A stretch of DNA of 64,000 nt, taken from the NCBI GenBank assembly GCA_038230075.1, contig JBBRNV010000005.1, positions 14,071 to 78,070 on the forward strand, written 5' to 3'. The translations under genes and the position numbers were made by a program. Every line of letters begins with the position of its first letter. Within the stretch, counting starts at the first letter, position 1. Positions 1 through 45,085 of the stretch are shown here, piece after piece. This stretch comes from Minisyncoccia bacterium. GTDB lineage: Bacteria > Patescibacteriota > Minisyncoccia > Phycocordibacterales > CALRBL01. Below the pieces are notes generated by a model that was not told where the DNA came from, searched no databases, and saw only the letters and a program-made list of their open reading frames with translations.

Positions 1-199
1 GCACCGCGAGCTCAAGCGGATTTTTCTTTTCTTTTTTCGCAAGCGAAAGTGCAACACTTGAGGCATAGTCTCCTTGTGCTCGGTTCGAAGGATGTTCAAG
101 ATGTATCTCTGATTTCTTCCCTTCAGCATTTTCAAAAGAAATACCAAGCGCACCAACTGCAGATGTAATAGAGTTTCGTATAATTTCAGCAATATTCAT
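1..199 (-). CDS. argS: Arginine--tRNA ligase, N-terminal fragment (gene continues beyond window start)
   Basis: Minus-strand translation from ATG at ~199 gives MNIAEIIRNSITSAVGALGISFENAEGKKSEIHLEHPSNRAQGDYASSVALSLAKKEKKNPLELA. The QGDYAS...LAKK pattern matches the ArgRS N-terminal domain. Not in the ORF track because it is truncated at the window edge. Confidence 0.55.
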   Translation of the reverse strand, partial: MNIAEIIRNSITSAVGALGISFENAEGKKSEIHLEHPSNRAQGDYASSVALSLAKKEKKNPLELAV

Positions 200-10700: not shown

Positions 10701-13700
10701 CTGCCCACTGACCAATCGCAATTGATGTTCCGTCTGATGAGTTATTAACCGTGTCGGCTGATCCTGCGTTTAATCCAATAAATATAGAGTTGTTTGCTTG
10801 CGCTGAAGAATCTCCAGCAGTATCTCCTAGAAAAAGCGAGTAAGAAGCACTTGTGGCATTATGTCCTGCGCCAATTCCAAGAAACGTAGATCGAAATACG
10901 TTCGTTGCACCCTCTCCTGTACCAAAACCAATAAAGTTAGAGAGTCCTGCGTCAGTTGCGCCCATTCCTGCTCCTGCGCCAATAAATATTGAACTACTAG
11001 CACGTGTTGCCAATTCTCCCGCAGCGCCTCCGATGAAAATCGAATTCACAGCGTCAGAAGCATGAAATCCGGAACTAGCTCCAATAAAAATAGCTTGGCT
11101 TGCATTTGTTGCTTCGTTTCCAGAACCATCCCCAAGAAAAAGCGAATAGTTTGCGTTGGCGACGTTTGTTCCAGCAGAGGCTCCGATTGCAAGACTATTT
11201 CCATTGATAGAATGGATTGGAAGCCCACTCAGATTAAGAGTGCTTGTCGCGTCTATCGTTCCAAGTGTCACATCTCCTTTGAAAAAGGCATTACCATTGT
11301 CTACTGTTAATTTGTAACCTGGAGTCGTCGTTCCAACTCCCACATTCCCTAAATTATAATAAATATCAGAACCTGTAGTTGTCCACTGTGATGTTCCTGT
11401 TCCTGAAGTGAAGAGGTTTCCATTTTGATAGAGGTTTCCAGTGAAGTTGATGTCGCCACCAACTGCTAGTGTGTATCCAGGGGTTGAAGTAGCAATACCA
11501 ATTCTTCCACCTGTTTCAGGTGCACCACTTGGGGTAATGTCTGCTCGAATGTTATTGGCAAACAGTACTCCTCCCAAGTTTAGTTCTCGAGATTGATTAT
11601 TGGCAGTTCCTTCTCCAATTGCAATACTGTCACTGAATCCTCCAGTTGATGTCCATGCTCCAATTAATATAGAAGATGACGCGAGATTTGTTGTGTTATC
11701 TACCGTGTCGGAGTATCCAGCATTACTACCAAGAAAGATTGAATTCGCAGCGTTGGTTGCTGCGGTTCCGACATTTGCTCCTACGAAAAACGAATCGTGT
11801 GCGTTTGTCGCATCGAGTCCGGCAGAGTATCCAAAGAAATGAGAATTTCTTGCCTGATTTGCATTTCTTCCTGCCTCCTGTCCAAAAAAGTTTGAGCCGT
11901 ATGCAGTGGTTGCATCACGCCCCGCATTGATTCCGAAGAAATTGGAATCATTTGCGTTGAAAGCTCCTCTTCCTGCGTTTGATCCAAAGAAATTGGAATT
12001 ATTTGCGTCATTTGCGTCACGCCCAGCAGACAAACCAAGAAAGTTTGATTCATTAAGATTTGCATCATTTAATCCTGCAAATGAGCCAATAAGTATATTA
12101 TTACTTCCATCTGTTAATGACGTTCCCCCACCCGCAGCAAGAAAGTTATTAGTACCTGTAATTGAAGTGTTTCCCGATACTCCAAGAAACAAATTTCTAG
12201 TCGTGGATGAAAATGCTAACGCTTGAAGATTTTCTATTTTTAATATTCCACCATTTGAAATATTGATGTCACCAACAACACTAAGTTTTGATGCGGGGGT
12301 TGTTGTTCCAACTCCCACATTCCCTAAATTATAATAAATATCAGAACCTGTAGTTGTCCACTGTGATGTTCCTGTTCCTGAAGTGAAGAGGTTTCCATTT
12401 TGATAGAGGTTTCCAGTGAAGTTGATGTTACCTTGAACTGCGAGTGTGTGACTTGGTGTTGTTGTGCCGATTCCGAGGTTTCCATTTGAAAGCATTTGGA
12501 TATATGCAGTATTTGAAAGACCGAGTTTAAAAATATTATCCTGAACAGTTGTTAAGCCATCACCTATCAGATATGAGTTTGTTGCTGTTGCAGCGTTAGC
12601 TTTTCCTAAAGCAAAGCTTCCGTTCGGAACATTGTTGTTGTATCCAAAGGCATATGTAGTAGAACCTGTTACCATATTCAGGAAACCAAAAGCTCCAGAA
12701 TAAGATCCGTTATTTATGGTGTTACTTCCACCAAAAATCGCAGACTCTGTACTAGTACTTATTCCATTTTCACTACCATATACACTTGCGTGATCAAATG
12801 AGTTTATAACCTTGTTTCCTATTCCAAAAGCAACACCTCGAATACCAGAAACTGTATTTGAAGTTCCGTAGGCAAGATTCTCACCTGGAGTAATAGCATC
12901 AACAGGAAAGATTCCATTTGAAATTGTATTTGAAGCTCCGTAGGCTTGGTTATTTCTTCCTTCAATTGTGTTGAATTTACCAAAAGCAACAACACCCCCT
13001 CCGGCTCCTGACGTTACATTCGATCGACCAATTATTATCGCGACACCTGAGTCTACAATGTTTGATGATCCAAAAATATTTGCACCTGATCCGGATCCTG
13101 AATTATCATTTCCCACAACTGATCCACCACTTGAATTCACAACAGAGATATCTCCTGCAACTGTAAGTGCCAAATTTGGAGTTGTTGTTCCTATTCCAAC
13201 ATTTCCTAAATTGTAATAAATATTTGAACCATTATTTAACCACTGAGATGATGTCGTTACTCCTCCAAATAAAATTCCGTTTTGGTAGAGGTTTCCAGTG
13301 AAGTTAATGTCGCCATCTACTCCTAATTTATAACTAGAAGTTGTTGTTCCAACCCCAAGGTTTCCTGTACTACTCGCAAGAGAAAGATAAGAACCGCTCG
13401 ATAAACCAATTAAGAAGGAGTCATTAACATTGTTAATGAGATTGTTTCCGAGAGTGTAAGAACCTGTACTGTTCACCGAGTTTGCAAGCCCAGCAACAAA
13501 ACTATTTGTTCCTGTTGCTCTGTTATTGCTTCCAAAAACTGAGACTTCGGAACCCGTAATAACGTTTGAGAAACCAAACGCATTTGATTCAAATGTTGTT
13601 CCTGACAAAATATTAAACACGCCGAAAGCTGAAGATGTATTTGATGTTCCAGAAATTCCGTTTTGAATTCCAACTGCAACCGAACGATCATCAGCAACAA

Positions 13701-37825: not shown

Positions 37826-38257
37826 TTATATTCCTTTTTTATGCATTTCTTTATCAAGAAAACTCTGAAGAATAATAGCTGCGGCTGATGCATCTAGCAT
37901 ATCATGAGCTCCTTGAATATGTGTTGCTTGGTGAGACGTGAGAAACTCTGGCTCAAAAAAAATAGGAAGCTTTGAAGCTTTTTTAATATCATCAGCAAAA
38001 ATAATAACGTCTTTCATGATTGGATTCATATTTCCACTAAACGTTCGAGACTCTCCAATTACAATTCCTATTGGCTTTGACTCTTTTATCAATCTCATCA
38101 CTTCTTTAATGAGCCCTGGAGAATTTTTAATAACAGCCTGAGGAAAGGCTAATCGGGCATGATCGTCTGAGATGGCAACACCTACTCGTTTTGAGCCGTA
38201 ATCGACTCCTATATATTTCTCGATTTGGGGATTTTTGGGCGATGCCTTCTTTTTCAT
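37826..38257 (-). CDS. ruvX: Holliday-junction-resolvase-like pre-16S rRNA nuclease YqgF/RuvX
   Basis: YIGVDYGSKRVGVAISD N-terminal RNase H-fold motif. Confidence 0.85.
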   Translation of the reverse strand: MKKKASPKNPQIEKYIGVDYGSKRVGVAISDDHARLAFPQAVIKNSPGLIKEVMRLIKESKPIGIVIGESRTFSGNMNPIMKDVIIFADDIKKASKLPIFFEPEFLTSHQATHIQGAHDMLDASAAAIILQSFLDKEMHKKGI

Positions 38258-38318
38258 AATTTCATACTACTCTATACCCCCTATTTTCCCAACTCTCACA
38301 GGATGCTAGTATAAATGC

Positions 38319-38603
38319 ATGAACCTTCTCACTTCACTTGGCCTAACTCAAACACAAGGAACACTTTTTCTTTTATTTAGCATTTTGTGGATTCTCCCTT
38401 GGAAAGCTATCGGCCTCTGGAAAGCTTCTCAAAATGGTCACAAATGGTGGTTTGTTTTCATCTTCATCATTAACACGTTCGCTCTTTTAGAGATCTATTA
38501 CATCTTCTTTGGTGCTGAGCGACAAATTGAAAAAGACCTTCTGAAGGAAGAAGTCGAGGAATCAGATCAAAATCGACACTCTCAAGAGGATGACTCTCAA
38601 TAG
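38319..38603 (+). CDS. Small hypothetical membrane protein
   Basis: Two TM helices, acidic C-terminus; no domain. Confidence 0.35.
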   Translation: MNLLTSLGLTQTQGTLFLLFSILWILPWKAIGLWKASQNGHKWWFVFIFIINTFALLEIYYIFFGAERQIEKDLLKEEVEESDQNRHSQEDDSQ

Positions 38604-38643
38604 AAAGTTGTAAAAGTCTATAAATAAGGTTATAAATGACCAC

Positions 38644-38733
38644 GGAGGAGTGGCAGAGTGGTCTATCGCACTTGTCTTGAAAACAAGAGTCCCTTCACGG
38701 GGACCGTGAGTTCGAATCTCACCTCCTCCGCCA
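38644..38733 (+). tRNA. tRNA-Ser (anticodon UGA), CCA encoded; insertion target of the adjacent element
   Basis: GGAGGAG...anticodon loop CTTGAAA...long variable arm GTCCC-TTCA-CGGGGAC...GTGAGTTCGAATCTCAC-CTCCTCC-GCCA. Confidence 0.85.
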
Positions 38734-40230
38734 AGAATCACATTTAGAAAAATCAAGGTTGGAAGCCTCGGCGCAAAGCGCCTCGGCATGGTATTTTTCC
38801 GCAATTTTGAAGGCATTTTTGAAATCGCACGCCAGCGTGCGGTCGGCAATGCGGAAGTTCGAACCAATCTTTTTGAGAAAATCCCGTCCCGCGACGGGAT
38901 TTTCTTGTTGAGCGTATTTTTCGGCTTGGTTGGCCTCTTTTAGAAAGGCAATGGCAAGTTCGAACCGATTATTGCTCTTTCGCTCAAAAGACTGGATTTT
39001 CTCCTGAAAATCTTTTTTAGCGAGAATGAGCTTGTGCTTTTTAGTGGCATATTCCGTTTGCAATAAATTGCCTTCAAGTTGTAAATCGAGCAAACGATCA
39101 AGTTTTGTCTCAACCTGCACAAGCTCATCTCTCGTCTTTTGAGCAAAAGAGCTTTCCGCTTGGGCAATATCTATTTTTTCTTTTTCAAAATATGCGATTG
39201 AAACATTGACCCAAGCGGAAGACAAAGAAACTTTTTTGATTTCCTCTTTTATTTGAGAAGTGATGGCGTCCTCTCTCGCGTATCTTTGCGAGCAAGGATT
39301 TTTCCGTTTGGTACAGCGGAGATAGTTGTGTCCCTTTTGTGTTTCAGTGGTAATGAAGCAACCACATTCTCCGCAACGGAAAAATCCTCTATACACATAA
39401 GGTTTCAACTTTGGCGATTTCGGTTTGCTCTTATTCGCCATCACTTCTTGAACGGAATCAAAAAGTTTCTTTGTGATAATCGGTTCATGCTTTCCGTCAT
39501 ACAATTCGCCGTTATATTCAATCATTCCAAAATAGATTTTATTTTTCAGCATGTACTGATAATTTGAGACGGAAAGCATTTTACCTTTCTTGCCAACCAA
39601 GCCCAAGGAATTGATAATCTTTCGGATTTGAGCGAGGGGGTATTCGCCAGTAGCGTACATTTCAAAAGCCCGCTTGATATACTTTGCCTTTTCTTTATCA
39701 ACAGCGATACAGCGGGCATTCTTGTCGTTCACATAGCCAAGCGGCGCCCAAGCGGGCCATATTCCATTTCTCAATTTCTGGCGAATACCCCTCTTTATAT
39801 TTTCCGAAAGATTATCCACATAGTATTTTGATTGCCCAAAAGCAATGGACAACATAAATTTCCCTTGCGGTGTGCAGTCAAACCAAAAAGTGGGAAATTT
39901 TAGCGTGGTAATTTTGCCAGTATCTACGAGATAGATAATCCGTCCGCCGTCTATAGAATTGCGAGCAAGGCGGTCGGGGTGCCACGCTAAAATTCCTTCC
40001 GCTTCGTTTTTCTCTATGCCCGCCACCATATCATTAAAAATTTCTCGCCCCGGCTCTTTGGCGGTTTTGCTTTCCACAAATTCACGGACGATCTGCAAAT
40101 TTTCTTTTCGCGCGTATTCTTTTAGCTCGAAAATTTGCGCTTCAATACTCAAAACCTGCCTTTCGGGTTCGTCCGTGGATTTGCGGGCATAGAGGAAAAA
40201 CTTTTTGGTTTGTAAATTTATGTTGTCCAT
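38719..40230 (-). CDS. Large serine recombinase (resolvase catalytic domain + recombinase domain + zinc ribbon + coiled coil)
   Basis: YARKSTDEPERQVLSIEAQ (catalytic Ser motif), recombinase-domain motifs, CGECGC...C zinc ribbon; 503 aa; ~44% GC versus ~37% for the host. Confidence 0.9.
   Translation of the reverse strand: MDNINLQTKKFFLYARKSTDEPERQVLSIEAQIFELKEYARKENLQIVREFVESKTAKEPGREIFNDMVAGIEKNEAEGILAWHPDRLARNSIDGGRIIYLVDTGKITTLKFPTFWFDCTPQGKFMLSIAFGQSKYYVDNLSENIKRGIRQKLRNGIWPAWAPLGYVNDKNARCIAVDKEKAKYIKRAFEMYATGEYPLAQIRKIINSLGLVGKKGKMLSVSNYQYMLKNKIYFGMIEYNGELYDGKHEPIITKKLFDSVQEVMANKSKPKSPKLKPYVYRGFFRCGECGCFITTETQKGHNYLRCTKRKNPCSQRYAREDAITSQIKEEIKKVSLSSAWVNVSIAYFEKEKIDIAQAESSFAQKTRDELVQVETKLDRLLDLQLEGNLLQTEYATKKHKLILAKKDFQEKIQSFERKSNNRFELAIAFLKEANQAEKYAQQENPVAGRDFLKKIGSNFRIADRTLACDFKNAFKIAEKYHAEALCAEASNLDFSKCDSWRRR
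38728..38861. repeat. Inverted repeat X, copy 1 (~134 bp; includes the last 6 nt of tRNA-Ser and the last ~45 codons of the recombinase)
   Basis: ccgccaagaatcacatttagaaaaatcaaggttggaagcctcggcgcaaagcgcctcggc...gcggaagttcg is the reverse complement of 40345-40478, with 1 mismatch. Weaker similarity continues ~60 bp further. Confidence 0.85.
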
Positions 40231-40344
40231 ATTGTTTTGAAATTAGTTTTTGGGCAATCAGGGAAAAATACGCTCAACCTTTCGCCGAAAGCGAAAGAAA
40301 AAAGATTGGTTTGCAAAATTCCATTTTGCCAGAACTTCGCTCTG

Positions 40345-40478
40345 CGAACTTCCGCATTGCCGACCGTACGCTGGCGTGCGATTTCAAAAATGCCTTCAAA
40401 ATTGCGGAAAAATACCATGCCGAGGCGCTTTGCGCCGAGGCTTCCAACCTTGATTTTTCTAAATGTGATTCTTGGCGG
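40345..40478. repeat. Inverted repeat X, copy 2 (immediately upstream of the recombinase start, abutting Y copy 1)
   Basis: Reverse complement of 38728-38861. Carries a duplicate of the recombinase C-terminal coding segment (the + ORF 40311..40535 reads FRIADRTLACDFKNAFKIAEKYHAEALCAEASNLDFSKCDSW). Confidence 0.85.
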
Positions 40479-40643
40479 TGTTTCTTGATTGATGTTCGAA
40501 CATTTTTTGAAGAAAATCCGAATTCCGAATTTTAAAATCCAGTTGCTCGGGCGGGCAAAAAGGAAGGGGGTTGGGGGGAAGGAATTTTTGCCCGCCCTCG
40601 CTTTCCAATCCCAATTTTTTTCCGCCGCCGTCGCCGAATTTCG
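40475..40643. repeat. Inverted repeat Y, copy 1 (~167 bp)
   Basis: gcggtgtttcttgattgatgttcgaacattttttgaag...gggcgggcaaaaaggaagggggttgggggg...ccgaatttcg is the reverse complement of 43967-44132, with 2-3 mismatches. Contains the palindrome gttcgaac. Confidence 0.85.
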
Positions 40644-40727
40644 TATTTCGCTTTGCGAAATGCGCCGCCTAGAATTTTGGTTGCCAAATTTCAATGTTTT
40701 TGTTATCATTATATTAAGCTAGTTGAT

Positions 40728-40757
40728 ATACACTCAATATAAGTAGTGTATTATAAT
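40728..40757 (+). promoter_or_regulatory. Candidate operator palindrome (atacact-N10-agtgtat) and -10 box (tataat) upstream of the cargo operon
   Basis: 7-bp inverted repeat at 40728-40751 is immediately followed by tataat at 40752-40757, 22 nt before the ATG at 40780. A plausible binding site for the XRE HTH protein in the operon. Confidence 0.35.
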
Positions 40758-40779
40758 AGTTTATCAAAGTCAAAACAAT

Positions 40780-41094
40780 ATGGCAAATCAATCGGTAAAA
40801 GAAACATTTGAATCACTTTGGGAATGTTGCACTTCTAATAAGAGGGTATGCCCAATGCCAATGAAGTGGAATGATTTATATCAAATGTTAAATGATACCA
40901 AGCAAGTCGGTGCCGGTTATGAGCCGTCAATCCCCTTGATTTTAGGAGCATGGGGAAATACTTCAGACGAAGATAAACTAAATAGATTGAGAATTCATAT
41001 TAAATGGGCTTCAGATCATAATCAGCTTGATGAAATTGGAAAATATTTGAGATCACTTTCAGAAGAAGATTGGGCTCATTACGGAGAAATATAA
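40780..41094 (+). CDS. Hypothetical 104-aa protein, first gene of the cargo operon
   Basis: MANQSVKETFESLWECCTSNKRVCPMPMKWNDLYQ...; no recognisable domain; the next gene starts 4 nt after its stop. Confidence 0.5.
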   Translation: MANQSVKETFESLWECCTSNKRVCPMPMKWNDLYQMLNDTKQVGAGYEPSIPLILGAWGNTSDEDKLNRLRIHIKWASDHNQLDEIGKYLRSLSEEDWAHYGEI

Positions 41095-41098
41095 TTTT

Positions 41099-41299
41099 AT
41101 GGCAAATACAGTAAGCGAAAACATCCGCAAATTACGAATCAAAAAAGGAATATCCCAAGATCGCCTCTCAAAAGAGGCTGATTTGGCGTTAAATACAGTT
41201 GTGAAGATAGAAACAGGCGGAAGCCCGAATCCAACCGTGGATACTTTAGAAAAAATAGCCAAAGCCCTCGGCGTTCCGGTGGCTGAATTATTTAAATAA
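41099..41299 (+). CDS. XRE/Cro-C1-type helix-turn-helix transcriptional regulator (66 aa)
   Basis: NIRKLRIKKGISQDRLSKEADLALNTVVKIETGGSPNPTVDTLEKIAKALGVPVAELF is a canonical HTH_3 domain. Confidence 0.85.
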   Translation: MANTVSENIRKLRIKKGISQDRLSKEADLALNTVVKIETGGSPNPTVDTLEKIAKALGVPVAELFK

Positions 41300-41303
41300 A
41301 AAT

Positions 41304-43934
41304 ATGTTAACACAAAAATACGACGAACTTTTTAATCCGCTATTAGAAGCACTCAATAATCTTGGGGGCTCTTCTTCGATTAAGAAAATAGAAGAGGAGG
41401 TTGCAAATATTCTTAATTTAACAGCAGAGGATAGATATGATAAGCATCGTGGAAATAGAACAAAGCTAGAATATAGATTAGCATGGGCTAGTAATTACTT
41501 AAAAAGATATGGCTTAATTGATAAATCAAAAAGAGGAATATGGTCTCTAACTGAAGACGGAAAGAGAACCAACATTGTTGACAAAGACGAAGTTAATCAA
41601 TTTGTTAAAACATTAGATTTAAAAAAATCTAATGTTCGTTTAACAAAAAAAATAGTTGAGAAAATCAATATAGTTGAATTTCTTCAAAAAATTGATTTGG
41701 AGGCTTTTAAATATGAACCTCATTTTTTAACTAACCCCGGAGTAAGAGTTAAGGATATTCTATCCAGCGTTGAAAAGAGATGGGTATTGCCGAATTTCCA
41801 AAGATATTATGATTGGGACAAGGAGGACGTAAGGGCTTTTTTGGAATCCATTTTTAAGGACTATTTTGTAGGATCGCTGCTTTTGTGGGAAGTAGAGAAA
41901 GAACCAGAGATTGCTTATTTTCCGATACAAGGTGTTAAAAACAAAATTGATAAGCCAGAAATAATTATTCTTGATGGCCAACAAAGGATTACTTCGTTGT
42001 ATTATGCGATTAAAAATCCAACTCTAGAAGAGGATGGTGTTAAATCGTTGTTTTATATAAATTTCAAAAATTATTTTGAAAATTTATCTTCCGACATTGT
42101 TATTACAAGTAGTAGAAAATTAAGCATTAGAGAGTCGGTAGAGTCCTTACTTTTCCCATTTTACGAACTGGAAAATCATGTCGAATGGATGCGAGAATTT
42201 GTTGATTTTTATGAAGAGCAGGATGGAATTGACAAAAGAAAGTTAAAAGAGCTTAGCAGAATAATGGAGGACAGGGTTCGTCATATGTGGGGAAGTTTTC
42301 AAATTCCCGAAATTAAACTTCCGGCCTCAATGAAACTTCATCATGTTGTTGATATATTTGAAAACATAAACACAAGAGGGAAACTTCTTGACGCTTTTGA
42401 TCTTTTAATTGCAGCCTCCATAAAACAGAATATTGATTTAAGAAAATTATGGGATGGTTCACGTCAGAAGTACCCAAACCTTGCTAGATATGCCGAAAAA
42501 ACAAAAAACAAGATTAGGATGTATATTTTGCAATCAATTTCGCTACTCCATAATCCAACTAGTTCATGCAAAAAAAGTGACATATTAGAATTATACGAGC
42601 AAATATACTCAAATAAGGGAAAGGACCCAAAAACTTTTGAAAAGCATTGGGAAGAAATGTCTGATTATGTAAATTTGGCCATAAAGGAGATGGAGGATCT
42701 CAAAGGTGGTTTTGGAATAATTGATGAATCACATGTTCCATTCATGTCGATAATTCCGATACTGGCTGCATTAAAAAGAGAGGTTGATTCGAGAGATAAT
42801 AAGCATAGTTGTAATGAAAAAATCAAACAATGGTATTGGTCAGTGGTATTTAGTGAAGCATATTCATCTGCGGTTGATAGCCAGCTAACATTAGACTTTA
42901 AGGAATTAAAGGAGTGGTTCTCCGATGATACAAAAATTCCAAAAAGCGTGGAAGAGGCAAGAATTCTCATTAAAACTTTGAATTTAAAAAAGGTTAATAC
43001 TTTTTCAAGTGCTGTTTTTCGTGGAGTACTCTCTTTACTAGCCATAAAAGGATCTAAAGATTTGCAAACAGGTGAAATGGTTAATAATAGAAATGACTAT
43101 CATAAAGACCATATATTTCCGAAAAGCAAATCAGAAAAATATGTTACTACAAAAAAGGAGCTAGATTCAATATTAAATATGGCTTGGTTGACAAGTCCCA
43201 CTAACGAAAGCAAGGGCGCAAAAGAACCAAAGAAATACTTTGAAGAGTTTGAGAGTAAATACAACGGAAATAAAGGAGCGTACACAGAAGTTCTTGAATC
43301 ACACTTCATCAACAAAGAGGACTACGACTATCTTCTAGATAATAATTTCGAAGAATTTATAGTCGAAAGAGAAAGTGTTTTAGTGGACGAGATTAAAAGA
43401 TTAATTGGTTGGAATAAACATGATCAAGACAGTGATATCCAAAATAACGATATCGACCAATTAATAAATTCTTACGAAAATGAAAAACTTGAGTTTAAGT
43501 CAACATTTAAAAAAAACATACTAACACAAAAATCTGATGAAATTATTAGATTTTCAGTGCTTAAAACAATAGCTGGTTTTTTGAATGCACGAGGAGGAAC
43601 TTTAATAATTGGTTATGACGAAAAAGGCAAGAAGGTAATTGGATTGGAACAAGATTACGAATTAATGAAGAGGGGTGATCGAGATAGTTTTGAGTTAGAG
43701 TTTTGGAATTACATTGAAGCGAATATTGATAAGGATGTAGTGAAAAATAATATAAATTTGAGATTTGAATTAATTGATGAGAAAGAGCTGGCAGTAATTG
43801 AAATCAAAAGAAGTTCAAAGCCAATTTATATTAAAAAAGCTGACAAAAAAATTCTTTATACTCGTAACAGAAATGAGACTGAGAATTTAGAAGATCCTGA
43901 AGAAATTCATAATTATATAGAAAAACATTTCTAA
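41304..43934 (+). CDS. Four-domain nuclease: Mrr_N winged helix + DUF262 (ParB/GmrS-like NTPase) + DUF1524 (GmrD-like His-Me/HNH nuclease) + C-terminal AlbA_2/Schlafen-like domain; GmrSD/BrxU-like type IV restriction candidate
   Basis: N-terminus YRLAWASNYLKRYGLIDKSKRGIWSLTEDG (Mrr_N). NFQRYYDW...IILDGQQRITSLYYAI (DUF262 DGQQR motif). YHKDHIFPKSK...NMAWLTSPTNESKG (DUF1524 DHIxP motif). C-terminus EKLEFKSTFKKN...SVLKTIAGFLNARGGTLIIGYDEKGKKVIGLEQD (AlbA_2). 876 aa; ~32% GC, AGA/ATA-rich codon usage. Confidence 0.8.
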   Translation: MLTQKYDELFNPLLEALNNLGGSSSIKKIEEEVANILNLTAEDRYDKHRGNRTKLEYRLAWASNYLKRYGLIDKSKRGIWSLTEDGKRTNIVDKDEVNQFVKTLDLKKSNVRLTKKIVEKINIVEFLQKIDLEAFKYEPHFLTNPGVRVKDILSSVEKRWVLPNFQRYYDWDKEDVRAFLESIFKDYFVGSLLLWEVEKEPEIAYFPIQGVKNKIDKPEIIILDGQQRITSLYYAIKNPTLEEDGVKSLFYINFKNYFENLSSDIVITSSRKLSIRESVESLLFPFYELENHVEWMREFVDFYEEQDGIDKRKLKELSRIMEDRVRHMWGSFQIPEIKLPASMKLHHVVDIFENINTRGKLLDAFDLLIAASIKQNIDLRKLWDGSRQKYPNLARYAEKTKNKIRMYILQSISLLHNPTSSCKKSDILELYEQIYSNKGKDPKTFEKHWEEMSDYVNLAIKEMEDLKGGFGIIDESHVPFMSIIPILAALKREVDSRDNKHSCNEKIKQWYWSVVFSEAYSSAVDSQLTLDFKELKEWFSDDTKIPKSVEEARILIKTLNLKKVNTFSSAVFRGVLSLLAIKGSKDLQTGEMVNNRNDYHKDHIFPKSKSEKYVTTKKELDSILNMAWLTSPTNESKGAKEPKKYFEEFESKYNGNKGAYTEVLESHFINKEDYDYLLDNNFEEFIVERESVLVDEIKRLIGWNKHDQDSDIQNNDIDQLINSYENEKLEFKSTFKKNILTQKSDEIIRFSVLKTIAGFLNARGGTLIIGYDEKGKKVIGLEQDYELMKRGDRDSFELEFWNYIEANIDKDVVKNNINLRFELIDEKELAVIEIKRSSKPIYIKKADKKILYTRNRNETENLEDPEEIHNYIEKHF

Positions 43935-43966
43935 ATTATTTTGGCGGCGTGCCAGTTTCACTGGCA

Positions 43967-44132
43967 CGAAATTCGGCGGCGGCGGAAAAAAATTGGAATC
44001 GGAAAGCGAGGGCGGGCAAAAATTCCTTCCCCCCAACCCCCTTCCTTTTTGCCCGCCCGAGCAACTGGATTTTAAAATTCGGAATTCGGATTTTCTTCAA
44101 AAAATGTTCGAACATCAATCAAGAAACACCGC
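43967..44132. repeat. Inverted repeat Y, copy 2 (right boundary of island)
   Basis: Reverse complement of 40475-40643. Ends in ...gaaacaccgc, directly followed by unique flank acataacaat. Confidence 0.85.
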
Positions 44133-44136
44133 ACAT

Positions 44137-44173
44137 AACAATAAAGACCACCTCATTGGTGGTCTTTATTGTT
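44137..44173. repeat. Perfect 16-bp stem hairpin (aacaataaagaccacc-tcatt-ggtggtctttattgtt) flanking the island; no U-tract
   Basis: Exact palindrome immediately outside IR Y'. Could be the pre-insertion tRNA-Ser downstream structure, a terminator of the convergent regulator gene, or part of the attachment site. Confidence 0.6.
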
Positions 44174-44239
44174 ATGCTACATAAGATAGAGAGATTCGGG
44201 TCGAACCTCCTTTCGAAAGGAATCTCACATTTACCACCT

Positions 44240-45085
44240 TCAAGCATTAATCCCCTTCAATACCTCACGAATCATTTTATTATGATCAACTTTCTTTCCT
44301 CCAGCTTTTACATATTCAAACATTTCTCTCATGAAGCCTGTCATATTTTTATTGATAATTTCAATAGCAACATCTTCATGCCAATTAATAATTAATGTGG
44401 TGTCTTTGAAAATCCATATTTCTGAATCGTAGTTAAAACGATCATTGGGAAACACGGTATAGTCTGCCATTCTTCCCTCAAGGGTCTTTGTTGACTCCTT
44501 ATACCTCTGAGGATCAGACGTTATTTCTTTTTCATACGAATCATACGCACCCTCATTCAAAATACCATCAACAACCAAGTGATTATCGATAATTGATTTA
44601 TTGAAACTTCTGAATTGTTCGGGGGTTAGTTTGTGAATTTGATCGAGATACGATCGGTGATGCTGAATCGCCTTAATGCGCTCGTTTTTATTCAACGAAG
44701 CGATGCGTGCAAATGTTGGAATAATCTCTTTGGGTCCAACGTGAATAATAAACTCATTTTCTTTGGCAGTTTTAATACGCGCACCCTTTTTTGTTTCTGT
44801 GGCAATAGTTACTTCATCAATAATATTCTGCAATTCTAGAACAAATTGTTGCTGTGTAAGTGCAATGTATCTATATCGTTTACCAAATTTCACCTGATTC
44901 ACCAACTTCCTTTCTAAAAGCTCTTTCAAGGTGAAAGCGACACTTGTTCGAGGAATCCCCGTCTCTTTTGCGACATGACTAAGACTTTTGGCAGTACTCA
45001 TTGATCGCAACAACTCAATTGAAACATCAGACAAGCCAAGCATTTTTAGTATTTTTTTATCCCACATCATATGGATAGTATACAT
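44240..45085 (-). CDS. TrmB/MarR-like winged-helix transcriptional regulator with C-terminal ligand-binding-like domain
   Basis: N-terminal HTH (LSHVAKETGIPRTSVAFTLKELLERKLV); 281 aa. Uncertain family. Confidence 0.45.
   Translation of the reverse strand: MYTIHMMWDKKILKMLGLSDVSIELLRSMSTAKSLSHVAKETGIPRTSVAFTLKELLERKLVNQVKFGKRYRYIALTQQQFVLELQNIIDEVTIATETKKGARIKTAKENEFIIHVGPKEIIPTFARIASLNKNERIKAIQHHRSYLDQIHKLTPEQFRSFNKSIIDNHLVVDGILNEGAYDSYEKEITSDPQRYKESTKTLEGRMADYTVFPNDRFNYDSEIWIFKDTTLIINWHEDVAIEIINKNMTGFMREMFEYVKAGGKKVDHNKMIREVLKGINA

Follow-up and report, generated by a model that had tools for sequence, protein, structure and literature searches.

A tRNA-Ser-associated serine recombinase island with an internal inverted attachment site in candidate phyla radiation bacteria

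Introduction

Integrative elements and prophages mobilized by large serine recombinases (LSRs) of the A118/LI, Bxb1 and phiC31 type combine Resolvase, Recombinase and Zn-ribbon domains and recombine attP with attB across a short common core, with an attP motif positioned 5 bp further out. In the standard model of these recombinases, attL is locked by coiled-coil interactions. Here, we describe a 5.4-kb island situated 3' of a tRNA-Ser gene in a Minisyncoccia bacterium of the Patescibacteriota, within a stretch of 64,000 nt (assembly GCA_038230075.1, contig JBBRNV010000005.1, positions 14,071 to 78,070; hereafter the window), consisting of a repeat arm X, an LSR gene, a centre in which arms X' and Y abut, a three-gene cargo and a closing arm Y'. 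The island resembles the known LSR elements in domain architecture and in attP x attB logic, but its LSR has no close relative among annotated phages and plasmids (identity at most 32%), its attB has a single conserved arm, supplied by the tRNA gene, and its attP lies inside the recombinase gene so that integration swaps the protein tail. The island also keeps a second, complete and inverted attP, with no gene for a recombination directionality factor (RDF) evident.

Other described systems share individual traits with this locus. Tycheposons and related tRNA islands are likewise small cargo or defence islands at tRNA 3' ends, with regenerated tRNA genes and tandem arrays, although tycheposons use tyrosine integrases almost exclusively (910/937; bioRxiv 10.1101/2020.12.28.424599). 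Islands of that kind have direct-repeat ends only and lack the internal inverted attP and the bipartite inverted-repeat layout. The Hin, Gin and Cin systems also place a serine recombinase gene in or next to a segment with inverted crossover sites (Hin inside its own segment); these are, however, invertases of about 190 aa with a C-terminal helix-turn-helix (HTH), short hix/gix sites (26-34 bp) and a Fis enhancer, and they are not mobile islands, whereas the island enzyme is a 503-aa protein with LSR domains and its inverted partners are attL and attP. The island is neither a Hin/Gin system nor a shufflon.

Closer in overall topology is the yeast 2-micron plasmid (FLP, 599-bp inverted repeats), which is split into two flipping unique segments, one of them encoding the recombinase, as the circular form of the island would be. 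FLP is nevertheless a tyrosine recombinase and the plasmid replicates itself, whereas the island has no conserved replication gene and its repeats are chromosomal attachment sites. Integrases of the SSV1 type also carry attP within the int gene, such that integration alters the recombinase gene; the SSV1 tyrosine integrase gene is split in two, whereas the island exchanges the last 16-20 codons only and retains a second, intact LSR 3' end.

Literature searches returned no published description of this architecture, and the island family, found across the candidate phyla radiation (CPR), is apparently undescribed and is best read as a new architecture of LSR integrative island with two probably invertible modules. 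Few mobile elements are known from CPR/Patescibacteria, where this family appears very abundant and carries restriction-modification (R-M) and other defence genes between distant lineages (85-95% DNA identity). As a natural LSR system it is unusual in that one arm, formed by the T-arm and acceptor stem of tRNA-Ser, defines attB, in that attP sits within the recombinase gene, and in that a second attP is conserved in inverted orientation. This second attP may offer control by inversion in place of an RDF. Both the single-arm attB and inversion control are relevant to serine integrases as genome-engineering tools.

Architecture of the island

Read directly from its junctions, the order along the island is attL, LSR, inverted attP, cargo and attR. 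The tRNA-Ser(UGA) gene (38644-38733, forward strand; ARAGORN call with anticodon tga, Rfam tRNA at 56 bits) lies directly beside the island, as stated in a preliminary description made from the sequence alone. It meets X (38728-38861), which is the final 134 nt of the LSR gene (38719-40230, reverse strand) and comprises the P' arm of attP and the last 45 LSR codons; the stop codon falls within the antisense strand of the tRNA gene, and the 503-aa product is the integrated, truncated-tail isoform. Beyond the LSR upstream region U (40231-40344), which ends in a hairpin abutting X', the inverted copy of the LSR 3' end, X' (40345-40478), passes into Y (40475-40644), the P arm of attP. The cargo leader V (40644-40779, forward strand), carrying a promoter-like site, precedes the cargo genes, and the island closes with Y' (43966-44132), whose outer end, ...AAACACCGC, forms attR. 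An inverted-repeat search of the window gave 99% complementarity for X and X' (134 nt) and 98% for Y and Y' (about 160-170 nt, two sub-repeats combined), and a 44-nt piece of Y occurred exactly twice in the window against 0 expected (100 shuffles). The two long inverted-repeat pairs of the preliminary description were therefore recovered; the pairs it called nested are adjacent and overlap by the 4-nt core.

The junction of tRNA and X reads ...cctcCCGCCAagaatcac, that of X' and Y reads gtgattctTGGCGGtgtttcttg, and that of Y' and the flank reads caagaaacaCCGCacataac. As had been noted before, all three share CCGC (38728; 40475-40478, as gcgg; 44129-44132), which at attL was read directly as the core CCGC(CA) (38728-38733). 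The left junction (tRNA to X) is attL and the right junction (Y' to flank) is attR. CCGC forms a short direct repeat at both island ends and the tRNA gene is regenerated, likewise in relatives; the terminal GCCA at the tRNA-Ser 3' end is now element-derived. The reverse complement of the central junction joins Y' to X, which is the attP of the excised circle, and the island centre is therefore an inverted attP, complete and internal (40420-40530, reverse strand), with its crossover at 40475-40478. That X'Y is the element's own inverted attP is the key to the geometry, and it was absent from the preliminary description. Sequence comparison suggests that crossover takes place at the CCGC cores. 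The B-type arm of attB is the 3' half of tRNA-Ser (T-arm, acceptor stem and G73).

Native flank D (acataacaat..., 44133-44172, forward strand) lies directly outside Y' and contains a hairpin, AATAAAGACCACC...GGTGGTCTTTATT, followed by a run of T's (44140-44170), probably the original tRNA-Ser terminator pushed 5.4 kb away by the insertion. The vacant target site in this genome would read tRNA-Ser followed by ACATAACAAT. GC content forms a mosaic, lowest in the cargo (0.31-0.33), intermediate in the flanks (0.36-0.41) and highest in the LSR module (0.42-0.45). Independent Logan unitigs of run SRR19962015, the only other record of this genome, contained this cargo and flank and broke within the Y arms, as expected for a genuine inverted repeat.

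A widespread family with a conserved layout

The LSR encodes Resolvase (PF00239, 2e-19), Recombinase (PF07508, 1e-16) and Zn_ribbon_recom (PF13408, 7e-8) Pfam domains, with a YARKST serine motif at residues 14-19. An exact-sequence look-up of the window LSR returned no record, and its matches in the PDB were remote catalytic domains only. Searching databases for relatives, a check proposed in the preliminary description, uncovered at least 534 LSR relatives in species-representative genomes (one genome per species), with the same layout recurring, and 7986 clusters at E<=1e-20 in a protein search. Eighty genome loci were fetched; individual loci and contigs are cited below by L numbers. The window LSR was 85-96% identical to hundreds of CPR proteins, with 85-95% protein identity among the fetched CPR loci, and about 60% identical to its Elusimicrobia relatives. 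The same element recurred in unrelated contexts, with DNA 85-95% identical in metagenome-assembled genomes labelled as many CPR lineages and flanks that were all different.

Layouts were established by segment BLAST and self-BLAST. Almost every locus with enough flank shared the layout: 17 such loci contained an X pair of 133-134 nt and an abutting Y pair of 155-423 nt, and these 17 relatives reproduced the junction logic of attL, attR and inverted attP. The cargo gap between the Y arms spanned 1.3-7.1 kb across all complete elements. Arms were 97-100% identical within an element and different between elements, and the 134-nt X pair was kept at 60% LSR identity in Elusimicrobia, where L074 has the full double repeat. 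Many contigs of relatives stop in or near the arms, an effect of genuine repeats. No family element was found without the duplication, with the possible exception of L106 (9776-12242), in which tRNA-Ser(gct) is followed after 137 nt by an LSR of 73% identity and then by an undamaged X'-Y junction, with neither an upstream X copy nor an inverted repeat; this may be a simpler or decayed relative. The preliminary suggestion of a new kind of tRNA-targeting integrative element is well supported by the recurrence of an LSR and double inverted repeat at tRNA-Ser in hundreds of unrelated CPR genomes, with a different cargo each time among relatives. That the island is an integrative element with an internal inverted attP is very likely.

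A single-arm target in tRNA-Ser

Among the relatives' loci scanned, the LSR 3' end abutted tRNA-Ser in 23 of 24, with anticodons tga, gct, gga and cga. The junction of tRNA and X always read TTGGCGG followed by agagg..gggattcgaaccc, and flank D was different in every relative examined, which indicates an attB with one conserved arm. At least CCGC was kept at the attR junction in 16/17 relatives, the remaining one (L034) having CCG only.

Half-site consensus sequences were read outward from TGGCGG for 47 unique tRNA arms (AGaGgg.GGGATTCGAACCC) and 41 unique Y arms (TGTTTTTTGgacGA.GTTCGAACaTTtTTTGA). The T-arm motif TTCGAA occupies positions +12..17 in the tRNA arms versus +17..22 in the Y arms, and the Y arm of the window carries GTTCGAAC 17-22 nt from TGGCGG. 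For LI integrase, the zinc-ribbon-domain (ZD) motif lies 5 bp nearer the crossover in attB than in attP (PMC3783163). The 5-bp outward shift of TTCGAA in Y follows the same rule, and Y can therefore be assigned as P-type, mimicking the tRNA T-arm, and the tRNA as B-type.

Other branches of the family may target other tRNAs, as indicated by L124 (5016-7052), where an LSR of 68% identity, its X pair measuring 126 nt, lies beside tRNA-Gln(ttg) in the alternative orientation, with the LSR reading away from the tRNA.

Alternative ends of the recombinase

The LSR of the window ends ...DSWRRR within the antisense strand of the tRNA gene, a tail of RR before the stop codon, where relatives read WRRGRDSNPR.... 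Read into Y, the same frame gives the tail CFLIDVRTFFEENPNSEF before a stop codon, and in relatives WRCFL[ID][DE]VRTFF[ED][EQ]NP.... Across 46 unique Y sequences, the codon-position entropy of this tail was 11.5 at position 3 and 5.3/4.8 at positions 1/2, and the motif [CS][FL]L.[EK][VI]RT[FY]F.[EQ]NP was kept down to about 60% LSR identity. Together, the excess of entropy at position 3 and the retention of the motif show that, in at least one state of the element, the Y tail is translated and subject to selection. This conserved Y-encoded LSR tail is lost in the usual integrated state. The database LSR proteins of the family (clusters P0003-P0120) range from 499 to 580 aa, a spread that arises because gene callers translate through the tRNA antisense strand (e.g. 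...WRRGRDSNPR...); such antisense tails are target-derived rather than part of the recombinase.

Within the best 120 protein clusters, about 60 had tRNA tails and about 20 had Y tails. Proteins with Y tails were mostly encoded on contigs of 1.8-3 kb, with few at 8-15 kb, and those with tRNA tails frequently on long contigs, up to 1 Mb. The short contigs of the Y-tailed proteins fit a non-chromosomal (circular or arrayed) form, without proving it.

The 36 nt of X nearest the core (38734-38769 and 40437-40472 in the window) were hypervariable between elements, with at least three variants, a feature noted also at L004 and L007. This stretch represents the P' arm together with the last ~12 LSR residues before WR, following the pattern xSx[DN]Fx[KE][CS]xxWR. 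A link between the variant and the tRNA-Ser isoacceptor was considered and rejected, as each variant occurs with several anticodons and there was no correlation.

A 74-aa open reading frame (ORF) across X'Y (40311-40535, forward strand) repeats the LSR C-terminus and the Y tail. It was rejected as an RDF candidate: an ATG was found in 0/46 variants, 5 variants had no start codon at all, and other frames were equally open. This ORF is probably a by-product of the duplication rather than a gene.

Isomers and tandem arrays

A pattern test of the 80 genome loci detected LSR body, X' and tRNA in succession in 36 and LSR body, X' and Y in succession in none, and regex classification of this unbiased genome set gave about 38 standard-state loci versus 2 in the alternative state. 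Metagenome contigs yielded 25 matches to the LSR-X'-Y pattern, about 7 of which represent a standard-layout subfamily whose arms measure 147-149 nt, and a scan of viral contigs for the same junction returned 0 matches. The alternative isomer, in which tRNA and X are followed by the hairpin, U and a full-length LSR that reads through X' into Y, was found in L083 and L039. In L083, which lies on a 543-kb contig, the cargo converges on the LSR and the arms differ at many positions, making an assembler flip unlikely. In L029 (9669-11587), the LSR module is bracketed by two tRNA-Ser(gga) genes that are identical in sequence, inverted relative to each other and differently flanked on the outside; this arrangement would arise if both attP copies recombined with attB, and implies a chromosomal rearrangement or a cassette-exchange-like event. 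Since the internal copy is joined to tRNA-Ser in L029, L039 and L083, the internal attP is recombinationally competent. Flips of the LSR module only were found on contigs L091, L096, L099, L105 and L109, and contigs of about 2 kb carried Y on both sides of the LSR. L107, taken as a further locus with tRNA, X and hairpin in succession, proved to be a regex false positive with no tRNA present.

In 22 complete elements, the cargo diverged from the LSR in 18, was flipped in 3 (L040, L044, L045) and was mixed in 1. A 100%-identical LSR module was also assembled with the cargo both ways in related samples (L108/L109; L114/L118 versus L115-L120), which is suggestive only, since the Y arms exceed read length. 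With orientation isomers of both modules among relatives (L029, L039, L083; L040/L044/L045; L108 versus L109), the island is probably invertible, which was one half of an earlier proposal that it forms an invertible, shufflon-like defence locus.

Tandem arrays were detected in L081, L084, L087, L020 and L114, with the newer element next to the tRNA and the older one displaced. The arrays in L020, L081 and L114 indicate that the regenerated junction of tRNA and X served as attB a second time; the later insertion in L020 was made by another LSR subfamily. The tRNA-proximal member of the L114 array (11499-11693) has no LSR module and is a cargo-only derivative beside the tRNA, its deletion fusing 39 nt of X to the distal part of Y where both share CAAAATCC. 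Different X variants were carried by the two arms of an element in L013, L016, L026, L029, L033, L083 and L087; such chimeric arms would arise if adjacent LSR modules of an array underwent homologous deletion, which would swap the cargo too.

Proposed mechanism and alternative explanations

Overall, the best explanation of these results is an LSR-driven mobile island at the tRNA-Ser 3' end (around G73/C74) with an inverted copy of its attP at the centre that might act as a switch; taken as a whole, we regard this explanation as more likely than not. The free form would be a circle in which two inverted attP copies divide the LSR segment from the cargo segment. Either copy could integrate, with a strong preference for the one located in the LSR 3' end, and integration through that copy would swap the conserved tail for tRNA-antisense codons, parking the enzyme. 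The internal attP and attL would then form an LSR-competent inverted pair, making the LSR module self-invertible, and a flip of this module would restore the full-length LSR and hence mobility. The four observed isomers would all be reachable by attP x attB-type reactions, and cargo flips may also stem from RecA acting on the long Y arms. No conserved small gene was found beside the LSR in the family, the smallest cargos consist of one unrelated gene each, and the smallest elements have no room for an RDF gene. We propose that the flip could provide on/off and directionality control and so take the place of an RDF. That the internal attP works as an on/off switch of the recombinase is advanced here as a tentative possibility. 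More doubtful still is the broadest form of the proposal, in which an LSR element sets its directionality through DNA inversion with no RDF involved, any tRNA-Ser suffices as an attB with one arm, and the family is a main vehicle of R-M and defence genes across CPR.

Several points weigh against the proposed switch. Inversion between attP and attL contradicts the standard model and is deduced only from the tandem arrays, the symmetric centre of the core, GC, would be palindromic and L034 has CCG only, and the host genome or the cargo might supply an RDF. The strong bias towards one state may simply mean that one attP copy is preferred, without any subsequent switching. Isomers were judged from assembled contigs. 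The flips of the LSR module only could represent assembler mis-traversal of identical arms; L108 fits either a circle or a tandem dimer, and no contig closed as a circle.

The strongest alternative, which we regard as somewhat unlikely, is that the inverted attP at the centre serves no function in itself and is an old inverted duplication (e.g. a partly deleted inverted dimer), inherited and homogenised by gene conversion, with module flips as occasional RecA events and excision carried out with a separate RDF. Arms that are nearly identical within elements and different between them are what gene conversion predicts; the variable length of the Y arm, the strong dominance of one orientation and the origin of chimeric arms by homologous deletion in tandem arrays fit this account as well. 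It is less easily reconciled with the 134-nt length and inner boundary of X, both kept to 60% LSR identity along with a co-varying hairpin, with the demonstrable recombination of the internal attP with tRNA-Ser (L029, L039, L083), or with the duplication being present in every family element, L106 possibly excepted.

A phase-variable, shufflon-like defence locus, in which recombinase-driven inversion of the segment from Y to Y' would switch or diversify the defence genes, is very unlikely, and this is the half of the earlier proposal that was not supported. Long inverted repeats do flank the cargo, flipped cargo was found in 3/22 relatives and the same element was assembled with both cargo orientations (L108/L109, L114/L115-120), but orientations assembled across Y arms longer than the reads are unreliable. 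The cargo is a self-contained operon whose promoter-like site and coding sequences all lie between the Y arms, such that inversion alters no coding sequence and changes no product; the cargos of relatives are unrelated, complete R-M or defence cassettes rather than alternative gene segments; and Y and Y' are both P-type arms, a combination on which LSRs do not normally act.

Less probable again is the chance juxtaposition of two independent elements, namely an LSR 'IS' whose ends are 134 nt long and a cargo transposon whose ends are 160 nt long. The difference in GC content between the modules and the lone LSR module between two tRNA-Ser genes in L029 could be read in this way, but the centre is the exact reverse complement of the joined outer ends in every locus, both modules occur together in essentially all complete loci, target-site duplications are absent, and the ends act as the LSR attL and attR at a tRNA gene. 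Least credible of all is an assembly artefact in which a collapsed or chimeric contig created the repeats, a doubt raised in the preliminary description and consistent with the many contigs that end in or near the arms, since the layout was found in >100 independent assemblies from different pipelines, including a single-amplified genome (L006), and the arms of L013, L026 and L083 differ at too many positions to be one collapsed sequence. The contig name of L050 also resembles those given by long-read assemblers.

Cargo genes

The ORFs listed in the preliminary description (the LSR, a 104-aa protein, an HTH protein and an 876-aa protein) were all recovered by ORF listing and Pfam. Cargo gene 1 (40780-41094, forward strand), encoding 104 aa, had no family match in Pfam or PADLOC. 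Cargo gene 2 (41099-41299, forward strand) encodes a 66-aa XRE/HTH_3 regulator (Pfam E=2e-15) with PADLOC matches to Control_protein (R-M C proteins) and capH, and in several relatives the first cargo gene is likewise of this HTH type. Cargo gene 3 (41304-43934, forward strand) encodes the 876-aa protein, for which an Mrr_N-DUF262-DUF1524-AlbA_2 architecture had been given: Pfam supported Mrr_N, GmrSD_N (DUF262; 5e-31) and AlbA_2, whereas it did not detect DUF1524 even at E<=5. PADLOC matched HEC-05 (E=8e-30) across residues 144-702, and a DHIFP motif is visible. Cargo gene 3 is predicted to encode a GmrSD-like, type IV (modification-dependent) restriction enzyme.

R-M components dominated a survey of 57 cargo proteins of relatives, spanning N6_N4 and C5 methylases, NgoPII, ResIII/type III Mod-Res, type I HsdR/S and Eco57I-like proteins, with AAA_21, AAA_13, DUF6119 and others also represented. 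The cargo is a swappable defence cassette, elsewhere mostly of type I, II or III R-M.

Hairpins, promoter-like sites and flanking gene

The hairpin at the end of U (CAGAAC-TTC-GCTCTG, 40330-40344) has a 6-bp stem and abuts the inner end of X'. It always precedes the central X copy in relatives (L002-L107), where its stem shows the compensatory variants CCGTGC/GCACGG, CTGTGC/GCACAG and CAGAGC/GCTCTG, and by sequence it is not a terminator. A second, GC-rich hairpin with a G-rich loop, GGGCGGGCAAAAA ... TTTTTGCCCGCCC, lies in Y (40549-40597) with its mirror in Y' (about 44012-44060), and this region (q72-118) is 100% conserved in many otherwise diverged relatives. A permissive Rfam scan of 38000-45000 detected the tRNA only, and neither the Y nor the U hairpin matched an RNA family.

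The promoter-like site in V, TTGCCA-17-TATCAT (40681-40709, forward strand), is a consensus match only; V-like sequence adjoins the central Y arm in relatives. A leftward promoter-like site, TTGAGT-18-TATAAT (40708-40737, reverse strand), faces Y, X' and the LSR, and a transcript initiated there would have X at the 5' end and X' at the 3' end, and these could pair as a 134-bp duplex.

Outside the island, the flanking 281-aa gene (44240-45085, reverse strand) had weak matches to TrmB/Penicillinase_R HTH families and, in PADLOC, to Csa3/CARF-associated regulators.

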